7,703 nt of DNA from a virus (taxonomy: Duplodnaviria > Heunggongvirae > Uroviricota > Caudoviricetes). Of the stretch, positions 188 through 7,703 are shown in pieces; position 1 is the first letter of the stretch; the number at the start of each line of letters is the position of its first letter. Where the stretch lies: the IMG/VR virus record IMGVR_UViG_2778261465_000006; one strand, given 5' to 3'. The position numbers and the translations under genes were made by a program. The notes beneath the pieces are model-generated. The model saw only the letters and a program-made list of their open reading frames with translations, had not been told where the DNA came from and did not search any database.

Positions 188-403
188 ATGAAATCCATGG
201 ATAAGTTAACAACGGGCATTGCCTACGGCACCTCCGCAGGCAGTGCTGGCTACTGGTTTTTACAGCTGCTCGATAAAGTCACGCCCTCACAGTGGGCAGC
301 AATAGGTGTGCTGGGTAGCTTGGTATTTGGCCTGCTGACGTACCTGACAAACCTTTATTTCAAGATTAAAGAAGATAAGCGCAAGGCTGCGAGAGGTGAA
401 TAA
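188..403 (+). CDS. essD: Class II holin / pinholin (phage 21 S21 / EssD family), 71 aa, with dual-start motif
   Basis: ORF begins MKSMDK (Met1-Lys2-Ser3-Met4 dual start giving antiholin 71 and holin 68). Two hydrophobic helices ([15 protein letters not shown]; [17 protein letters not shown]) and a charged C-tail. Strong SD GGAGGTGAGG upstream. Stop overlaps the next start (TAATG). Confidence 0.9.
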
Positions 404-900
404 TGCCTCCATCATTACGAAAAGCCGTTGCTGCTGCTATTGGTGGCGGAGCAATTGCTATAGCATCAGTGTTAATCACTGGCCCAAGTGGTAACGATGG
501 TCTGGAAGGTGTCAGCTACATACCATACAAAGATATCGTTGGCGTATGGACTGTATGTCACGGGCATACAGGAAAAGACATCATTCCCGGTAAAACGTAT
601 ACCGAAGCAGAATGCAAAGCCCTCCTGAATAAAGACCTTGCCACGGTAGCCAGACAAATTAACCCGTACATCAAAGTCGATATACCGGAAACAACGCGCG
701 GCGCTCTTTACTCGTTCGTCTATAACGTGGGCGCAGGCAATTTCAGAACATCTACTCTTCTTCGCAAAATAAACCAGGGCGATATCAAGGGCGCATGTGA
801 CCAGCTACGTCGCTGGGCATACGCTGGCGGTAAGCAATGGAAAGGCCTGATGACTCGTCGTGAGATTGAGCGTGAGGTCTGTTTGTGGGGGCAACAATGA
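403..900 (+). CDS. rrrD: SAR (signal-anchor-release) endolysin, T4-lysozyme-like GH24 muramidase, 165 aa
   Basis: N-terminal Gly/Ala-rich weakly hydrophobic SAR segment ([20 protein letters not shown]). Catalytic triad spacing E35...D44...T50 as in phage 21 R. Start overlaps holin stop; stop overlaps Rz start (ATGA). Confidence 0.9.
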
Positions 901-1364
901 GCAGGGTAACCGCGATTATCTCCGCTCTGGTTATCTGCATCATCGTCTGCCTGTCATGGGCTGTTAATCATTACCGTGATAATGCAATCGCCTACAAAGA
1001 ACAGCGCGATAACAAGGCCAGTGAACTGGAGAAGGCGAACGCCACCATTACTGACATGCAGCAGCGCCAGCGTGATGCTGATGCACTCGATGATAAATAC
1101 ACGAAGGAGTTAGCTGATGCGAAAGCTGAAAATGATGCTCTTCGGCGCAAGCTTGATAATGGTGGTCGGGTGCTCGTCAAAGGAAAATGCCCTGTGCCAT
1201 CCTCAGCCGAAACCTCCAGCGCCTCCGGCATGGGCAATGATGCCACCGTCGAACTCTCTCCAGTTGCTGGACGAAACGTTCTCGGTATCCGGGACGGAAT
1301 TATCCGCGACCAAACAGCACTGAGAACGCTTCAGGAATACATCAGGACGCAATGCCTTCGATGA
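897..1364 (+). CDS. rzpD: Rz i-spanin (inner-membrane spanin subunit), about 155 aa
   Basis: Start ATG at 897 overlaps endolysin stop. N-terminal TM helix ([18 protein letters not shown]), coiled-coil-like periplasmic domain, embedded Rz1 in the +1 frame. The track ORF from 885 uses an upstream GTG; ATG 897 is preferred. Confidence 0.85.
1117..1323 (+). CDS. rzoD: Rz1 o-spanin (outer-membrane lipoprotein), embedded in Rz in the +1 frame, 68 aa
   Basis: MRKLKMML start as in lambda Rz1. Lipobox VVGC. Pro-rich mature region ([11 protein letters not shown]). SD AAGGAG 7 nt upstream of ATG 1117. Confidence 0.85.
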
Positions 1365-1538
1365 TAGCGATAATTTTACTCATCATCCTTCACATCTGGC
1401 TCTGTAGACAGGGTGGTGCTCACTTCTGGAGTGAATCCAGATTAAACATCTCATTGCTGATGCTTGATATTGAGCATTTTGCGCGCGGTAAGGGGCTGCG
1501 TTGAGATAAGAACCAGTCATTACAAATACCAGGATTTA

Positions 1539-1561
1539 GCCTCGCATTCGCGGGGCTTTTT
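1539..1561 (+). terminator. Rho-independent terminator downstream of Rz/Rz1
   Basis: Stem gcctcgc (1539-1545) / gcggggc (1550-1556), 7 bp with one G-U pair; loop attc; followed by ttttt (1557-1561) then att. Confidence 0.6.
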
Positions 1562-1573
1562 ATTGCCATTACA

Positions 1574-1603
1574 AAAGCCACTTCCTACAGAGTGGCTTTG
1601 ATA
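1574..1603 (-). terminator. Candidate terminator for the minus-strand accessory operon
   Basis: Perfect 9-bp inverted repeat aaagccact (1574-1582) / agtggcttt (1591-1599) with an 8-nt loop. On the minus strand the stem is followed by UUUUGUAAU. Lies downstream of the minus-strand ORFs. Confidence 0.4.
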
Positions 1604-1645
1604 ATGGTTTATACCCTACACGGGATAACTTAACTGATATCCCTT

Positions 1646-1810
1646 TTAAAGGATAAAGGTATTCAAGCCTGACACATCATGCGCTGTATCGTCGCCGTAT
1701 TCCCGTATTAACAGAGACCGTAGCCCGACGGGGAACTCCTTCTGCGCGAGTGTGCGGGAATAATCAAAAACGATGCACACCGGGGTTACCGGGTACACAT
1801 ATTTCATCAT
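1646..1810 (-). CDS. Possible small ORF (54 aa, MMKYVYPVTPVCIVFDYSRTLAQKEFPVGLRSLLIREYGDDTAHDVSGLNTFIL), hypothetical
   Basis: Below the 60-aa track cutoff; found by manual translation. Sits where bor lies in lambda/DLP12 but is not Bor-like. No convincing SD. In frame with ybcV beyond its stop codon. Could be a gene remnant. Confidence 0.2.
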   Translation of the reverse strand: MMKYVYPVTPVCIVFDYSRTLAQKEFPVGLRSLLIREYGDDTAHDVSGLNTFIL

Positions 1811-1855
1811 GCCAGCGAGTCCGGTTCTGGCACGGAAGAAACCGGACGTTATGAT

Positions 1856-2266
1856 TTAGTGCGGAAATATTTGTGTAGTGTTCTGAATGTTCTCAGTAAA
1901 GAGTAATGAATTATCAAAGGTATAGTAATACCTTTTGTTTTCGTGGATATTTGTAATCCATCTGAAAACCCCTGCTGTAGCAAGATTTTTCCTGTATTCG
2001 TAAAATGATAACTCTCCTGATTTGAATCCTTTTAAGGTGGCTTCTATAAGGCATTTATTTTTTGAAAATCTTACATTTACAACCTTACCCTGTCCTTTTA
2101 TTAAAACCGTATTATCGTTTTCAAGAACAAGATGAATATTCTCTGTAGCTAAATAGTAAATGTAATGTGAGACATTGTGACGTTTTAGTTCAGAATAAAA
2201 CCAGTGATAGTTTAAATTATTTCGCACTTTATCGAATATTTGTTTAAAAATGGCAACCTGAGCCAT
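1856..2266 (-). CDS. ybcV: DUF1398 family protein (YbcV/YdfO-like prophage accessory protein), 136 aa from the second Met
   Basis: Translation [16 protein letters not shown]...[25 protein letters not shown] matches my recollection of DLP12 YbcV and Qin YdfO. SD-like GGAAGG 7 nt upstream of ATG at 2266. The track ORF begins 5 codons earlier at 2281. Confidence 0.8.
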
Positions 2267-2322
2267 TGTAGTACCTTCCATGTGATATGAGGGGCGTAGT
2301 CTGCACGATTATCTAAATTGCT

Positions 2323-2556
2323 TCAATCTGGTCTGATCTGTTTTCTGAGCAATTCAGTAATGTCACTCTTTTCTTTGTTTGCTTCAGGAGAAACTCTTTT
2401 TTCTGAGCACAGTCTCCGGCGGCAGGCTTCAATGACCCAGGCTGAGAAATTCCCGGACCCTTTTTGATCAAGAGCGATGTTAATTTGTTCAATCATTTGG
2501 TTAGGAAAGCGGATGTTGCGGATTGTTGTTCTGCGGGTTCTGTTCTTCGTTGACAT
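2323..2556 (-). CDS. ylcI: Small ribbon-helix-helix (Arc/MetJ/CopG-type) DNA-binding protein, YlcI/DUF3950-like, 77 aa
   Basis: RHH signature: basic N-terminus, beta-strand IRNIRF, helix A MIEQINIALDQ, G-x-S/N turn (KGSGNFS), helix B AWVIEACRRRL, then a charged C-tail. Located immediately upstream of cos/nu1 on the opposite strand, as I recall for ylcI in DLP12. The symbol is tentative. Confidence 0.6.
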   Translation of the reverse strand: MSTKNRTRRTTIRNIRFPNQMIEQINIALDQKGSGNFSAWVIEACRRRLCSEKRVSPEANKEKSDITELLRKQIRPD

Positions 2557-2755
2557 GAGGTTGTCCCGTATTTAGTGTCGCTGATTTGTATTGTCTGAAG
2601 TTGTTTTTACGTTAAGTTGATGCAGATCAATTAATATGATACCTGCGTCATAATTGATTATTTGACGTGGTTTGATGGCGTAGATGCACGTTGTGACATG
2701 CAGATGATAATTATTATCATTTTGCAGGTCCTTTCCGGCGATCCGACAGGTTACG

Positions 2756-2767
2756 GGGCGGCGACCT
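2756..2767 (+). other. cosN 12-nt cohesive-end segment GGGCGGCGACCT (terminase nick sites flank it)
   Basis: Exact lambda cohesive-end sequence, directly visible. Confidence 0.85.
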
Positions 2768-2805
2768 CGCGGGTTTTCGCTATTTATGAAAAATTTCCGG
2801 TTTAA

Positions 2806-2916
2806 GGCGTTTCCGTTCTTCTTCGTCATAACTTAATGTTTTTATTTAAAATACCCTCTGAAAAGAAAGGAAACGACAGGTGCTGAAAGCGAGCTTTTTG
2901 GCCTCTGTCGTTTCCT
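2806..2916 (+). promoter_or_regulatory. cosB small-terminase binding repeats R3 (2808-2814), R2 (2869-2879, inverted), R1 (2905-2915), with an AT-rich IHF-like spacer
   Basis: Heptamer CGTTTCC occurs at 2808-2814 and 2909-2915, and inverted as GGAAACG at 2869-2875. R2 ggaaacgacag is the exact reverse complement of R1 ctgtcgtttcc. The arrangement matches the lambda R3-I1-R2-R1 layout. Confidence 0.7.
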
Positions 2917-2944
2917 TTCTCTGTTTTTGTCCGTGGAATGAACA

Positions 2945-3490
2945 ATGGAAGTCAACAAAAAGCAGCTGGCTGACATTTTCGGTGCGAGTATCCGTACCAT
3001 TCAGAACTGGCAGGAACAGGGAATGCCCGTTCTGCGAGGCGGTGGCAAGGGTAATGAGGTGCTTTATGACTCTGCCGCCGTCATAAAATGGTATGCCGAA
3101 AGGGATGCTGAAATTGAGAACGAAAAGCTGCGCCGGGAGGTTGAAGAACTGCGGCAGGCCAGCGAGGCAGATCTCCAGCCAGGAACTATTGAGTACGAAC
3201 GCCATCGACTTACGCGTGCGCAGGCCGACGCACAGGAACTGAAGAATGCCAGAGACTCCGCTGAAGTGGTGGAAACCGCATTCTGTACTTTCGTGTTGTC
3301 GCGGATCGCAGGTGAAATTGCCAGTATTCTCGACGGGCTCCCCCTGTCGGTGCAGCGGCGTTTTCCGGAACTGGAAAACCGACATGTTGATTTCCTGAAA
3401 CGGGATATTATCAAAGCCATGAACAAAGCAGCCGCGCTGGATGAACTGATACCGGGGTTGCTGAGTGAATATATCGAACAGTCAGGTTAA
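2945..3490 (+). CDS. nu1: Terminase small subunit (lambda gpNu1 / NohD family), 181 aa, apparently intact
   Basis: Translation MEVNKKQLADIFGASIRTIQNWQEQGMPVLRGGGKGNEVLYDSAAVIKWYAERD... matches lambda Nu1 essentially residue-for-residue by recollection. Gene A start lies inside its 3' end, as in lambda. Confidence 0.92.
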   Translation: MEVNKKQLADIFGASIRTIQNWQEQGMPVLRGGGKGNEVLYDSAAVIKWYAERDAEIENEKLRREVEELRQASEADLQPGTIEYERHRLTRAQADAQELKNARDSAEVVETAFCTFVLSRIAGEIASILDGLPLSVQRRFPELENRHVDFLKRDIIKAMNKAAALDELIPGLLSEYIEQSG

Positions 3491-3698
3491 CAGGCTGCGG
3501 CATTTTGTCCGCGCCGGGCTTCGCTCACTGTTCAGGCCGGAGCCACAGACCGCCGTTGAATGGGCGGATGCTAATTACTATCTCCCGAAAGAATCCGCAT
3601 ACCAGGAAGGGCGCTGGGAAACACTGCCCTTTCAGCGGGCCATCATGAATGCGATGGGCAGCGACTACAGCCGTACTGGATGCACTGGAGAAGCATGA
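3465..3698 (+). pseudogene. A: Terminase large subunit gpA, N-terminal fragment (first 68 codons) joined out of frame to gene U sequence
   Basis: MNISNSQVNRLRHFVRAGLRSLFRPEPQTAVEWADANYYLPKESAYQEGRWETLPFQRAIMNAMGSDY matches the lambda A N-terminus. After codon 68 (3666-3668) the sequence is gene U read out of frame, stopping at 3696-3698. The ATPase and nuclease domains are absent. Confidence 0.85.
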
Positions 3699-4041
3699 CA
3701 CCGGGGCGACGCTTTTTGATGGTCGCCCCGCTGTTTTTGATGAGGCGGATTTTCCGGCAATTGCCGTTTATCTCACCGGCGCTGAATACACGGGCGAAGA
3801 GCTGGACAGTGATACCTGGCAGGCGGAGCTGCATATTGAAGTTTTCCTGCCTGCTCAGGTGCCGGATTCAGAGCTGGATTCGTGGATGGAGTCCCGGATT
3901 TATCCGGTGATGAGCGATGTCCCGGCACTGTCAGATTTGATCACCAGTATGGTGGCCAGTGGCTATGACTACCGGCGCGACGATGATGCGGGCCTGTGGA
4001 GTTCAGCCGATCTGACTTATGTCATTACCTATGAAATGTGA
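3649..4041 (+). pseudogene. U: Tail terminator protein gpU lacking its first 8 codons (U-derived from about 3670); an in-frame ATG at 3649 is supplied by gene A sequence
   Basis: AVLDALEKHDTGATLFDGRPAVFDE...[11 protein letters not shown] matches lambda U residues 9-131. The N-terminal MRWAATT is A-gene sequence read in the U frame. Confidence 0.8.
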
Positions 4042-4048
4042 GGACGAT

Positions 4049-4531
4049 ATGCCTGTACCAAATCCAGTAATGCCGGTGAAAGGGGCCGGGACCACACTGT
4101 GGGTTTATAAGGGGAACGGTGACCCTTATGCGAACCCGCTTTCAGACGTTGACTGGTCGCGTCTGGCTAAAGTTAAAGACCTGACGCCCGGCGAACTGAC
4201 CGCTGAGTCCTATGACGACAGCTATCTCGATGATGAAGATGCGGACTGGACTGCGACCGGGCAGGGGCAGAAATCTGCCGGAGATACCAGCTTCACGCTG
4301 GCGTGGATGCCCGGAGAGCAGGGGCAGCAGGCGCTGCTGGCGTGGTTTAATGAAGGGGATACCCGTGCCTATAAAATCCGCTTCCCGAACGGCACGGTCG
4401 ATGTGTTCCGCGGCTGGGTCAGCAGTATCGGTAAGGCGGTGACGGCGAAGGAAGTGATCACCCGCACGGTGAAAGTCACCAACGTGAGACGTCCGTCGAT
4501 GGCAGAAGATCGCAGCACGGTAACAGCGGCA
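4049..4531 (+). pseudogene. V: Major tail protein gpV, truncated after about codon 161 and joined out of frame to K sequence (the ORF runs on to 4681 in the wrong frame)
   Basis: [22 protein letters not shown]...[11 protein letters not shown] matches lambda V. Downstream residues ([12 protein letters not shown]...) are gene K read out of frame. SD GAGGA upstream of ATG 4049. Confidence 0.85.
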
Positions 4532-4809
4532 ATCTGGAGGCCACAGGGCTGTATCAGGTGCCGTTGTCAGCGGCGCAGCCGGGCGATGTGCTGCTGTGCT
4601 GTTTTGGTTCATCGGTGCCGAATCATGCCGCCATTTACTGTGGTGATGGCGAGCTGCTGCACCATATTCCTGAACAACTGAGCAAACGAGAGAGGTATAC
4701 CGACAAATGGCAGCGACGCACACACTCCCTCTGGCGTCATCGGGCATGGCACGCATCTGCCTTTACGGGGATTTGCAACGATTTGGCCGCCGCATCGATC
4801 TTCGTGTGA
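4531..4809 (+). pseudogene. K: Tail tip assembly protein gpK, C-terminal fragment of about 92 codons (NlpC/P60-like region), no start codon of its own
   Basis: Frame-1 translation [70 protein letters not shown]... matches the lambda K C-terminus. Confidence 0.8.
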
Positions 4810-5378
4810 AAACGGGGGCTGAAGCTATCCGGGCGCTGGCCACACAGCTCCCGGCGTTTCGTCAGAAACTGAGCGACGGCTGGTATCAGGTACGGATTGC
4901 CGGGCGGGATGTCAGCACGTCCGGATTAACGGCGCAGTTACATGAGACTCTGCCTGATGGCGCTGTGATTCATATTGTTTCCAGAGTCGCCGGGGCCAAG
5001 TCAGGTGGTGTATTCCAGATTGTCCTGGGAGCTGCCGCCATTGCCGGATCATTCTTTACTGCCGGAGCCACCCTTGCAGCATGGGGGGCAGCCATTGGGG
5101 CCGGTGGTATGACCGGCATCCTGTTTTCTCTCGGTGCCAGTATGGTGCTCGGTGGTGTGGCGCAGATGCTGGCACCGAAAGCCAGAACTCCCCGTACACA
5201 GACAACGGATAACGGCAAACAGAACACCTATTTTTCCTCACTGGATAACATGGTTGCTCAGGGCAATGTTCTGCCTGTTCTGTACGGTGAAATGCGTGTG
5301 GGGTCGCGGGTGGTTTCTCAGGAGATCAGCACGGCAGACGAAGGGGACGGTGGTCAGGTTGTGGTGATTGGTCGCTGA
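4707..5378 (+). CDS. I: Tail assembly protein gpI, 223 aa, full length
   Basis: MAATHTLPLASSGMARICLYGDLQRFGRRIDLRVKTGAEAIRALATQLPAFRQKLSDGWYQVRIAGRD... matches lambda I over its full length. Start overlaps the end of the K fragment, as in lambda. Confidence 0.88.
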   Translation: MAATHTLPLASSGMARICLYGDLQRFGRRIDLRVKTGAEAIRALATQLPAFRQKLSDGWYQVRIAGRDVSTSGLTAQLHETLPDGAVIHIVSRVAGAKSGGVFQIVLGAAAIAGSFFTAGATLAAWGAAIGAGGMTGILFSLGASMVLGGVAQMLAPKARTPRTQTTDNGKQNTYFSSLDNMVAQGNVLPVLYGEMRVGSRVVSQEISTADEGDGGQVVVIGR

Positions 5379-5396
5379 TGCAAAATGTTTTATGTG

Positions 5397-5420
5397 AAAC
5401 CGCCTCCGGGCGGTTTTGTC
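5397..5420 (+). terminator. Terminator-like hairpin in the I-J intergenic region
   Basis: Stem aaaccgcc (5397-5404) / ggcggttt (5409-5416), loop tccg, followed by tgtcgttt. The U-tract is partly inside the stem, so function is uncertain. Confidence 0.3.
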
Positions 5421-5438
5421 GTTTATGGAGCATGACGA

Positions 5439-5666
5439 ATGGGTAAAGGCAGCAGTAAGGGGCATACCCCGCGCGAAGCGAAGGATAACCTGAAATCCAC
5501 GCAGCTGCTGAGTGTGATCGATGCCATCAGCGAAGGGCCGATTGAAGGTCCGGTGGATGGATTAAAAAGCGTGCTGCTGAACAGTACACCGGTGCTGGAC
5601 AGTGATTCCCGCCGTCACATGCCGGGACCATCACCGTGTATGAAGATTCCCGACCCGGTACGCTGA
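5439..5666 (+). pseudogene. J: Tail tip/host-specificity protein gpJ, N-terminal fragment (about 54 codons) joined out of frame to stf sequence
   Basis: MGKGSSKGHTPREAKDNLKSTQLLSVIDAISEGPIEGPVDGLKSVLLNSTPVLD matches the lambda J N-terminus. The following SDSRRHMPGPSPCMKIPDPVR is stf sequence read out of frame. More than 1000 codons of J are missing. Confidence 0.85.
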
Positions 5667-7119
5667 ATGATTTTCTCGGTGCCATGACGGAGGATGATGC
5701 CCGTCCTGAGGCACTGCGCCGTTTTGAACTGATGGTGGAAGAGGTGGCGCGTAACGCGTCCGCGGTGGCACAGAACACGGCAGCCGCGAAGAAGTCAGCC
5801 AGCGATGCCGGCACATCAGCACGTGAGGCGGCAACCCATGCGACTGATGCTGCAGGCTCAGCACGCGCAGCCAGCACGTCAGCCGGACAGGCCGCGTCGT
5901 CGGCTCAGTCAGCATCTTCCAGCGCAGGAACGGCATCAACAAAGGCCAGTGAAGCATCGAAAAGTGCTGCTGCTGCAGAGTCCTCAAAAAGCGCGGCAGC
6001 TACCAGTGCCGCTGCGGCGAAAACGTCAGAAACGAATGCGGCAGCGTCACAACAATCAGCAGCCACTTCTGCATCCGCCGCGACCACGAAGGCGTCAGAA
6101 GCAGCCACCTCAGCCCGGGATGCGGCGGCCTCAAAAGAGGCAGCGAAATCATCAGAAACGAACGCATCATCAAGCGCCAGTAGTGCCGCTTCCTCGGCAA
6201 CGGCGGCAGGCAATTCCGCGAAGGCGGCAAAGACGTCTGAGACAAACGCCAGGTCTTCTGAAACGGCAGCGGGACAGAGCGCCTCGGCTGCGGCAGGCTC
6301 AAAAACAGCGGCTGCGTCGTCTGCCAGTGCCGCGTCAACAAGTGCCGGGCAGGCCTCAGCCAGTGCCACCGCCGCCGGAAAATCGGCAGAAAGTGCCGCA
6401 TCGTCTGCTTCAACAGCCACAACGAAGGCTGGCGAAGCCACTGAACTGGTTATTGGAACCAAACTGTCCGCAAGTCTGAACGGTAATGCATTAACAGCAA
6501 CAAAGCTGCAAACGCCAAGACGGGTTTCTGGTGTTGAGTTTGATGGTTCCAAAGATATTACTTTATGCGTGGCTGGACGATTAAGGGCAAGCCCGCCAGT
6601 GGTCGTGCCGTATTGTCTCAGGAACAGGACGGCATAAAATCGCATACCCACAGCGCCAGCGCATCCAGTACTGATTTGGGGACGAAAACCACATCGTCGT
6701 TTGATTACGGCACTAAATCCACGAATAACACTGGTGCGCATACCCATAGTTTAAGTGGCAGCACGAATGCAGCTGGTAATCACAGCCATAGAGATGGCCG
6801 TCGATTTAACCCCAGTGTTTTTAAAGATACTTATCAATATGGTTATACAAGCTCAGGTCAAAATACCTGGGGTGTACAAGGCTCAGTAGGTATGTCTACG
6901 GGGGCGTTAGCTAATACCAGTACAGATGGTAACCATAGCCACTCACTGTCCGGCACAGCAGCATCTGCAGGTGCACACGCACATACTGTCGGTATTGGTG
7001 CACACACGCACTCCGTTGCGATTGGTTCACATGGACACACCATCACCGTTAACGCTGCTGGTAACGCGGAAAACACCGTCAAAAACATCGCATTTAACTA
7101 TATTGTGAGGCTTGCATAA
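5606..7119 (+). pseudogene. stf: Side tail fibre gene stf: lacks its N-terminus and start, has a frame break at about 6563-6565, and retains the His-rich C-terminal tip domain
   Basis: Frame-2 segment (5606-6637) FPPSHAGTITVYEDSRPGTLNDFLGAMTEDDARPE... plus Ala/Ser-rich shaft matches the lambda Stf N-terminal half from about residue 55. Frame-1 segment (6565-7119) [34 protein letters not shown]...[18 protein letters not shown] matches the Stf C-terminus. The two segments are in different frames. Confidence 0.8.
5760..6420 (+). repeat. Low-complexity Ala/Ser/Thr-rich coding repeats of the fibre shaft (recurring AAKTSETNA-type motif)
   Basis: Motif K-[TS]-SETNA appears at least three times in the translation (near 6016, 6141, 6230) within a GC-rich, compositionally biased stretch. 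This explains the many overlapping spurious ORFs on both strands. Confidence 0.5.
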
Positions 7120-7703
7120 TGGCATTCAGAATGAGTGAACAACCACGGACCATAAAAATTTATAATCTGCTGGCCGGAACTAATGAATTTATTGGTGAAG
7201 GTGACGCATATATTCCGCCTCATACAGGTCTGCCAGCAAACAGTACCGATATTGCACCGCCAGATATTCCGGCTGGCTTTGTGGCTGTTTTCAACAGTGA
7301 TGAGTCATCGTGGCATCTCGTTGAAGATCATCGGGGAAAAACCGTCTATGACGTGGCTTCCGGCGACGCGTTATTTATTTCTGAACTTGGCTCGTTACCG
7401 GAAAATGTCACCTGGTTATCGCCGGAAGGGGAATATCAGAAGTGGAACGGCACAGCCTGGGTGAAGGATACGGAAGCAGAAAAACTGTTCCGGATCCGGG
7501 AGGCGGAAGAAACAAAAAACAGCCTGATGCAGGTAGCCAGTGAGCATATAGCGCCACTTCAGGATGCTGTAGATCTGGAGATCGCAACGGAGGAAGAAAC
7601 CTCATTGCTGGAAGCCTGGAAAAAATATCGGGTGTTGCTGAACCGTGTTAATACAACAACTGCACCGGATATTGAATGGCCAACAGTACCCATTATCGAA
7701 TAG
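7119..7703 (+). CDS. tfa: Tail fibre assembly chaperone Tfa, 194 aa, full length
   Basis: [62 protein letters not shown]... matches lambda Tfa throughout. ATG overlaps the stf stop (TAATG). SD-like GTGAGG upstream. Stop TAG at 7701-7703. Confidence 0.9.

Follow-up and report, generated by a model that had tools for sequence, protein, structure and literature searches.

We describe here the 7703-base stretch of DNA held as IMG/VR virus record IMGVR_UViG_2778261465_000006 (hereafter the window, that is, the whole stretch that was analysed), which is very probably what remains of the late-gene (structural) arm of a lambda-like prophage, now dead, at the attachment site of lambda in Escherichia coli (attB-lambda, ybhC / ybhB-bioA). 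Remnants of this kind have been described before at this locus; the present one is very young and otherwise ordinary, a lambdoid prophage eroded by deletions, and its surviving pieces are best seen as neutral debris which is still eroding and not as domesticated genes.

Identity and setting of the remnant

The window was found at 100% identity at positions 3582-11284 of contig NNVC01000046.1 in the E. coli assembly GCA_002485495.1. Beyond tfa this source contig carries a MASE4-GGDEF gene, which is dgcX, a diguanylate cyclase gene and prophage cargo, followed by ybhB, bioA, bioB and bioF, the bio side of the lambda attachment site. The source contig stops short of the ybhC side, and both sides are present around the prophages of the E. 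coli strains XJ5.2 and OW1E2. The first 2.7 kb of the window hold a DLP12-type lysis cassette (essD, rrrD, Rz/Rz1), a DUF1398 gene and a gene of the YlcI/YnfO family, and the RefSeq annotation of relatives uses the DLP12 names essD, rrrD and nohD.

The late arm follows the order cos-nu1-A...U-V...K-I-J...stf-tfa and is collinear with lambda, in blocks of 86-99.5% identity. In BLAST comparison with the lambda reference NC_001416, window positions 2394-2755 corresponded to the right end of lambda (48141-48502, 93.9%) and 2756-3674 to lambda 1-920 (cos, nu1 and the first 68 codons of A, 99.5%). Two gapless blocks follow, 3668-4532 with lambda 8574-9438 (U, V; 97.3%) and 4531-5605 with lambda 14597-15671 (K, I, J; 95.9%), and positions 5606-6316, 6564-6717 and 6933-7702 matched the stf/tfa region at 86-90%. 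Pfam matches to Nu1, U, the tail tube protein (V), NlpC/P60, I, phage_tail_N and Caudo_TAP were distributed across the arm. The prophage is defective (cryptic), having lost genes that are essential for making particles: W, B, C, D, E, FI, FII, Z, G, T, H, M and L are missing altogether, A and J are missing for the most part, and V and K are truncated.

Genes and gene pieces retained

All the retained genes lie on the plus strand. Homology to the right end of lambda, the cohesive-end site (cos) and the cosB leader occupy positions 2394-2944, with the 12-nucleotide (nt) cohesive end of cosN, GGGCGGCGACCT, at 2756-2767. This site is of the lambda type, GGGCGGCGACCT and its flanks being identical to lambda and situated beside nu1; the first 196 nt of the cos/cosB region contain one mismatch and a 1-bp deletion in cosB. 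The nu1 gene (2945-3490) encodes a full-length small terminase subunit of 181 amino acids with two synonymous and no nonsynonymous differences from lambda (Pfam Phage_Nu1, E=2.5e-100), so that in window 2744-3490 a conserved lambda-type cos adjoins a Nu1 with 100% protein identity to that of lambda. The terminase of a helper lambdoid phage could in principle recognise this chromosomal cos, which points toward tfa-dgcX-bio.

The large terminase gene A (3465-3669) has only codons 1-68, identical to those of lambda; beyond them its open reading frame (ORF) is read out of frame as far as a stop at 3698. Codons 9-131 of the tail terminator gene U occupy 3670-4041 (Phage_tail_U, E=1.4e-57) with no mismatch to XJ5.2. 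This truncated U has gained an upstream ATG in the out-of-frame A sequence, giving an ORF of 130 amino acids at 3649-4041 which is composed of six new residues and U residues 8-131 and which gene callers annotate as a complete Phage_tail_U protein. The gene of the major tail tube protein V (4049-4532) retains codons 1-161 of 246 (Phage_TTP_12, E=3.5e-69), and its ORF runs on out of frame through K to 4681. Codons 108-199 of the C40/NlpC-P60 tail tip protein gene K (4531-4809) cover positions 48-105 of the 105 of the NLPC_P60 profile. The tail assembly gene I (4707-5378) is full length with 223 amino acids and has a private substitution, P92S, at nt 4980. The central tail fibre gene J (5439-5605) is reduced to codons 1-55 of about 1132, its ORF extending out of frame to 5666.

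Three fragments of the side tail fibre gene stf follow. An Ala/Ser-rich shaft fragment in its native frame (5606-6446) corresponds to stf nt ~203-1045 of 3405 and matches phage_tail_N positions 77-134; a short fragment (6447-6565), also in native frame, is 100% identical to XJ5.2; and the tip (6565-7119) comprises the last 184 codons, with a needle and head like those of T4 gp37, HxH motifs and a match to PDB entry 2XGF. The tip now begins, at the fifth deletion joint, with a Met codon that is internal in native stf and corresponds to M115 of lambda orf-314. The tail fibre assembly gene tfa (7119-7703) is full length with 194 amino acids (Caudo_TAP, E=1.2e-43) and has a derived substitution, A63S, at nt 7305; its product is identical to Tfa of lambda at 182/194 positions without gaps and to that of OW1E2 at 193/194. 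On the minus strand of the shaft, positions 5905-6747, there is an antisense ORF of 280 amino acids, which several assemblies call as a gene (245-246 amino acids). The GC-rich composition of the Ala/Ser codons is probably all that keeps it open, and it is comparable to orf206b of lambda, which is antisense to orf-401.

U 9-131, V 1-161, K 108-199, I 1-223 and J 1-55 contain no indels and no stops in their native frames. The first-pass annotation, which had been made from the sequence, had described the retained segments as free of internal stops and nu1, I and tfa as full length; the former was borne out in the native frame of every retained piece, and the latter for all three genes. Its description of the stf tip as intact needs correction: the tip codons are only the last 184 of about 1132 stf codons and stand out of frame with the remaining shaft.

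The five deletion joints

Three or four joints had been proposed between 3465 and 7703; there are five, each with a microhomology of 2-4 bp. The A/U joint (3668-3669, where the homology to A ends at 3669; microhomology CA) corresponds to a deletion of 7656 bp relative to XJ5.2, or 7660 bp relative to lambda, and is out of frame. The V/K joint (4531-4532, AA), likewise out of frame, lacks 5161 bp of XJ5.2 with the 3' end of V, all of G, T, H, M and L, and the 5' end of K. At the J/stf joint (5604-5605, GA), again out of frame, 4263 bp of XJ5.2 are missing, and with them lom, the greater part of J and 202 nt from the start of stf. The remaining two joints are inside stf: the fourth (6443-6446, GAAC) is an in-frame loss of 1266 bp (422 codons), and the fifth (6564-6565, TA) is a frameshifting loss of 421 bp. 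The fifth joint is present in every carrier which covers the position, while the fourth is private to the window genome, since all sister contigs keep the 1266-bp segment. It was considered that the fifth joint could be a junction of two stf alleles, and this was ruled out: the 421 bp are collinear in PhiR34_1, GPEC1405, OW1E2 and XJ5.2, thus the joint is a deletion.

Taken together, the five events (7.66, 5.16, 4.26, 0.42 and 1.27 kb) took about 18.8 kb of an arm of about 23.6 kb, in one narrow E. coli lineage. No long repeats were found at the five joints, only the microhomologies, and because all joints have these 2-4 bp, they probably arose by RecA-independent illegitimate recombination or by replication slippage. 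Repeats in the DNA were also considered as a cause of the deletions in the shaft and rejected: Tandem Repeats Finder detected no tandem DNA repeats there, and the only repeats that exist are imperfect ones of 15-27 nt which do not coincide with the joints.

An undeleted sister copy and the age of the deletions

A search with the bioA-bioF region of the source contig led to E. coli XJ5.2, which is 100% identical there. Between ybhC and ybhB this strain carries int, xis, IS1 (an insertion sequence, IS), ybcN...Q, a cargo of lipocalin, ybgA and AraC-type genes, the lysis genes and cos, and its late arm is whole, with nu1, A...J, lom, an stf of 1132 amino acids, tfa and dgcX. The window differs from it at 0/865 positions in the U-V block, 2/1075 in the K-I-J block, 0/123 in the short stf fragment and 1/1140 in the tip and tfa block, while the host flank differs at 4-5/7028. 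Outside a tract in the stf shaft which is discussed below, the retained DNA thus differs by 3 bases in about 4.1 kb, the same level as in the host flank.

Because the retained DNA differs from the undeleted copy no more than the host flank does, it is strongly supported by these alignments that the deletions are very recent and fall within the time needed for about 0.07% divergence. The first-pass annotation had offered recent deletion and selection on the retained pieces as two explanations of the open frames, and the former is confirmed by XJ5.2, where the same site, identical bioA-bioF genes, a whole late arm and near-identical retained DNA are found together. Moreover, the lack of stops in the retained pieces needs no selection, since about 4 substitutions have occurred since the undeleted state and 3.6% of the possible substitutions create a stop, so that only about 0.14 stops are expected. 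Every surviving piece is still an open frame because the deletions are so recent that the DNA is near-identical to the undeleted copy.

XJ5.2 is the proper comparison. CFSAN029787 was considered as an ancestor reference and rejected: its U-V and K-I-J blocks are near-identical to those of the window, but its bio genes are 2-3% off those of the window genome, and its likeness reflects horizontal spread of the prophage, not kinship of the hosts.

XJ5.2 has lesions of its own (locus 25169-28894), annotated as a frameshift in the large terminase gene and an internal stop in the portal gene; the window has lost that DNA, and the lesions may predate the split of the lineages or follow it. The same prophage decays via point mutation and IS insertion in the XJ5.2 lineage and via deletion in the window lineage.

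Distribution of the joints and order of the deletions

The survey of carriers combined an exact sequence look-up of three junction-spanning ORFs with 5,426 complete E. coli genomes. The joint-spanning ORFs were recovered from 4 NCBI assemblies and at least 5 independent Logan assemblies, one contig being seen in 19 samples; the sampling of carriers amounts to a few dozen samples of one clone. Carriers of the joints are the assemblies GCA_002485495.1, GCA_009648055.1, GCA_050900905.1 and GCA_965179105.1 and the runs ERR11737925, SRR29737981, SRR26143888, ERR12127897 and ERR12183132. The whole window and its three main joints were present in none of the 5,426 complete genomes. Intermediates with a subset of the joints were not found, every contig which spans more than one joint region having the A/U, V/K, J/stf and 421-bp stf joints. 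These four shared deletions are therefore old relative to the carrier clade.

Later events could be recognized beside the private 1266-bp deletion. In the sister contig ERR11737925 another ~3.7 kb are missing, between I codon ~103 and the middle of tfa, and in the sister GCA_009648055.1 a GCT run of the shaft is shorter by 3 bp. Erosion is still under way in the carrier lineage, and serial deletion does occur here, because these three deletions arose separately and later. A population survey had been suggested as a means of ordering the deletions; it left the four shared joints unordered and placed the 1266-bp, ~3.7-kb and 3-bp events after them.

Other remnants at the same locus were deleted independently and have joints of their own. 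GPEC1405 has a portal/lom joint and a full stf, and lacks I; EC01 has a ynfO/lom joint and lacks I and nu1; F9792 has nu1/J and lom/stf joints and lacks I; OW1E2 retains only int', IS elements, stf', tfa and dgcX, I and nu1 being absent; and in CFSAN029787 the arm is almost whole and tfa is frameshifted. The earlier description of the decay as deletion-only therefore holds for the window lineage but not for the prophage family, which also decays via IS insertion, frameshift and nonsense mutation.

Four genomes covering more than 80% of window 3611-5665 were rejected as carriers, since their prophage is an unrelated one, situated at potB and marked by A/Z and V/L joints of its own. In an unrelated lambdoid prophage next to potB in E. 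coli E500002 (8855-11411), the A'/Z' and V'/L' fusion joints show a similar style of decay, and V breaks off in a codon region that it shares with the window, since homology to V ends at window position 4532 in both.

The prophage is nearly identical in CFSAN029787 and OW1E2 although their bio genes differ by 2-3%, which shows recent horizontal movement of the phage or of the prophage segment. This fits the view of Richter et al. (2014, PMC4287979) that dgcX hitch-hikes on lambdoid prophages. Between strains, dgcX, the spacer and ybhB are nearly identical (ybhB 0/477 mismatches), and bioA just beyond has 39/1290 mismatches (source contig 11358-17537). The edge of the shared block between ybhB and bioA, past the expected attR, suggests homologous recombination of a larger segment or specialised transduction and not simple site-specific integration. 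The 'moron' slot between Q and the holin gene is also variable: the window lineage (source contig 289-3581), EC01 and XJ5.2 have there a lipocalin, a YbgA-family gene and an AraC-type regulator, in XJ5.2 with an extra IS3 between lipocalin and ybgA, and GPEC1405 and F9792 have an ompC/nmpC-type porin.

The shaft tract and the tail fibre tip as donor DNA

Of the 36 mismatches between the shaft and XJ5.2, 35 are clustered at reference positions 5801-6745, with identical sequence on both sides. The tract covers window 5801-6446 and extends into the 1266 bp kept by the sister contigs. In the window lineage it is 99.7% identical to stf of GPEC1405 and of phage PhiR34_1 (the shaft overall is 99.4% identical to the latter), and it looks like a gene-conversion or recombination tract, for which either lineage may have been the recipient. 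The Ala/Ser-rich shaft had been suggested to favour recombination; this tract and the 3-bp GCT slippage in GCA_009648055.1 support the suggestion in part, but tandem repeats are lacking and the joint in the shaft has a microhomology of only 4 bp.

It had further been proposed that the stf tip and tfa are a donor cassette, from which incoming lambdoid phages could gain a receptor-binding tip by homologous recombination. As an account of the remnant we regard such a reservoir as improbable, though it is the best placed of the alternatives; the DNA could have such a capacity without having been selected for it. The proposal is mechanistically plausible: across about 1.1 kb the tip and tfa share 95-97% identity with the stf/tfa genes of 18 sequenced lambdoid phages, and 88-90% with lambda, where a homology of at least about 88% on both sides of the exchanged segment is taken to be needed, and the tip spans a needle and head like those of T4 gp37, with a central head segment that differs from that of lambda. 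The shaft tract, too, shows past exchange at the locus. In the experiments of De Paepe et al. (PMC3945230) lambda acquired stf/tfa DNA from Rac and Qin and R-Rz-cos-nu1-A DNA from DLP12 at 88-95% identity, so this role has already been demonstrated for the cryptic prophages of K-12. Because stf of the remnant has a frameshifting deletion, only the tip and tfa part could give a working fibre; the left crossover would have to lie to the right of the fifth joint (6565), otherwise the 421-bp and 1266-bp deletions and the missing 5' end would be imported and the fibre destroyed. The block cannot repair lambda PaPa, whose stf frameshift region, between orf-401 and orf-314, is without a match in the window. 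A phage with this exact tip allele (at least 99%) was not found in the phage collection, and there was no sign that such exchange maintains the tip and tfa block.

Neutral debris or retained function

The number of surviving genes was compared with chance by placing five deletions of similar size at random on the 23.6-kb left arm of lambda. At least three intact genes were left in 45% of the trials (mean 2.5); nu1 survived in 45%, tfa in 53% and I in 10% of them. The former two survive often because they are terminal, and I survives like any small gene. The three survivals very probably follow from position and chance: nu1 and tfa are kept as the two end genes of the arm, tfa being shielded in addition by dgcX and the host genes, and I survives by happening to fall between two breakpoints. 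Bacterial mutation is biased to deletion, and genes at the borders of prophages have been proposed to enjoy a 'deletion shielding' (PMC7744054); that tfa survives so often is best accounted for in this way, by its place beside dgcX and the host genes.

The ratio of nonsynonymous to synonymous substitution rates (dN/dS) against lambda was 0.097 when pooled (16 nonsynonymous, 53 synonymous), with values of 0.05-0.3, and this low ratio reflects divergence while both were working phages. The changes derived in the deleted lineage are P92S of I (window genome only), A63S of tfa (whole clade), an R>H change in stf and a synonymous change in nu1 (A158A), the last two in one sister each. Three nonsynonymous changes to one synonymous have a probability of P=0.04 under a ratio of 0.097 and of 0.75 under neutrality, with only four substitutions; tiny as it is, the sample leans towards relaxed constraint and against domestication. 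A dN/dS and indel analysis against lambda had been suggested as a check: indels are lacking and dN/dS is about 0.1, and the changes on the deleted lineage are three to one.

Several observations weigh against the picture of plain neutral erosion. Four substitutions give very low statistical power, and tfa A63S may predate the deletions. The four shared joints are never found apart and may not have arisen independently of each other. The prophage was probably dead before these deletions, with its immunity and replication region seemingly lost beside an IS1; for the window lineage this loss seems to follow from one observation, that a sister contig ends exactly at the IS1 boundary of XJ5.2. Finally, five large deletions within about 0.07% divergence is a high rate for purely neutral events, part of which may be owed to a single complex event or to selection that favours shedding prophage DNA.

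The last point can be put in a stronger form. The four shared deletions could derive from one complex event, e.g. breakage and end-joining in an abortive induction, or each of them could have been driven by selection against prophage DNA; we consider this improbable, slightly more so than the reservoir. All joints are of one microhomology type, no genome or contig has a subset of the four shared joints, and the five large deletions left untouched both the 7-kb host flank and the 7.2-kb DNA of Q, cargo and lysis genes; as calculated from the lengths, the deletion-free 7.2-kb upstream part has P~0.26 if events are uniform, which is not significant. The 1266-bp, the ERR11737925 and the 3-bp deletions are clearly separate and later, and the sampling is thin. 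In all, 5-7 deletion events fall within about 0.07% divergence, and large microhomology deletions would have been fixed in the dead arm about as often as base substitutions, with none in the adjacent host and cargo DNA. There is a slight chance that this, together with the four oldest never being found apart, means removal in a burst, via a single break-and-rejoin episode or strong selection for loss. If true, burst loss of prophage structural arms would differ from the slow neutral erosion which is usually assumed.

Much less probable is domestication, in which the host would keep nu1, I, the stf tip and tfa by purifying selection for a function of its own. In its favour are the open state of all retained frames, the dN/dS values of the pieces against lambda, the reported enrichment of tail-fibre genes in incomplete prophages (PMC7744054) and the linkage of tfa to dgcX: dgcX was found in 771 of the 5,426 complete E. 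coli genomes, and 319 of 767 complete genomes with dgcX keep more than the last 187 nt of the adjoining tfa. In the remaining dgcX genomes (~58%) the tfa match starts at query position 420, 466 or 491, leaving 95-166 nt, and in CFSAN029787 tfa is frameshifted. Retention of the same genes is not shared across carrier strains, I and nu1 being absent or tfa truncated in several of them, and within the carrier lineage itself I and tfa have each lost half of their length in the ERR11737925 contig. With 99.9-100% identity between the remnant and the undeleted copy there was no time for selection to show, the lineage-specific changes are three nonsynonymous to one synonymous, and the number of intact genes is at the level of chance. 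The earlier proposal that the retained pieces are under selection is consequently not supported, with regard to the chance-level survival of genes, the three-to-one changes and the losses in the remnants of other strains. That the joints are assembly artefacts can be practically dismissed, since, although the source is a short-read draft contig, identical joints occur in all 4 independent NCBI assemblies and in the at least 5 independent Logan run assemblies, with one contig in 19 samples.

We therefore retain neutral debris as the reading of the surviving pieces. The remnant matters little beyond bookkeeping, as a clean and well-dated case of microhomology deletions whittling a dead lambdoid prophage. 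With the undeleted copy of XJ5.2 and the later deletions which are still segregating, it can serve as a teaching case or as a calibration for models of prophage decay. It should be emphasized that a gene piece cannot be called domesticated because its frame is open and its dN/dS against a reference phage is low; only the branches that follow inactivation give a valid comparison.

Comparison with known systems

The tip of T4 gp37 is the closest structural counterpart considered for the stf tip. Residues 1-184 of the query align end to end with chain residues 74-242 of PDB 2XGF (E=2.6e-53), including the HxH repeats and the C-terminal motif, so the piece is by its sequence a T4 gp37-like receptor-binding tip without collar and shaft. 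Residues 1-73 of the crystallised fragment have no counterpart in it, nor has anything upstream of them, and its central head segment is divergent. Because the collar, the shaft and all upstream parts are missing, this tip cannot attach to a virion alone.

The defective prophages of Bobay, Touchon & Rocha (2014), as cited in PMC7744054, share with the window decay by deletion and the persistence of tail-fibre and border genes. As far as that citation describes them, those vertically inherited prophages are under purifying selection; the window pieces, in contrast, show no such sign with their three-to-one changes, and their retention is not conserved. The lambdoid remnants with dgcX described by Richter et al. 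(PMC4287979) are the nearest relatives, at the same site (ybhC / ybhB-bioA), with the MASE4-GGDEF gene directly after tfa and with variable completeness. The five-deletion set of the window, which is confined to one small lineage of draft assemblies, is not described there.

DLP12, Rac and Qin of K-12 are likewise defective lambdoid prophages with essD-rrrD-Rz, cos, a nu1 homologue (nohD/nohA), a terminase fragment and stf/tfa pieces, and they have been shown to be DNA donors to lambda by homologous recombination (PMC3945230). The window remnant differs from them in that it is located at attB-lambda and not at argU or the Rac and Qin sites, is much younger (about 0.07% from the undeleted copy) and keeps lambda-type fragments of U, V, K, I and J. 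Lastly, the split stf of lambda PaPa (orf-401/orf-314) has the same layout, a shaft ORF and a tip ORF in another frame followed by an intact tfa. In PaPa the split is due to a single-base frameshift (HK630 annotation; PMC3945230), whereas in the window it is a 421-bp deletion, with the 5' 202 nt and 1266 bp of the gene lost as well.

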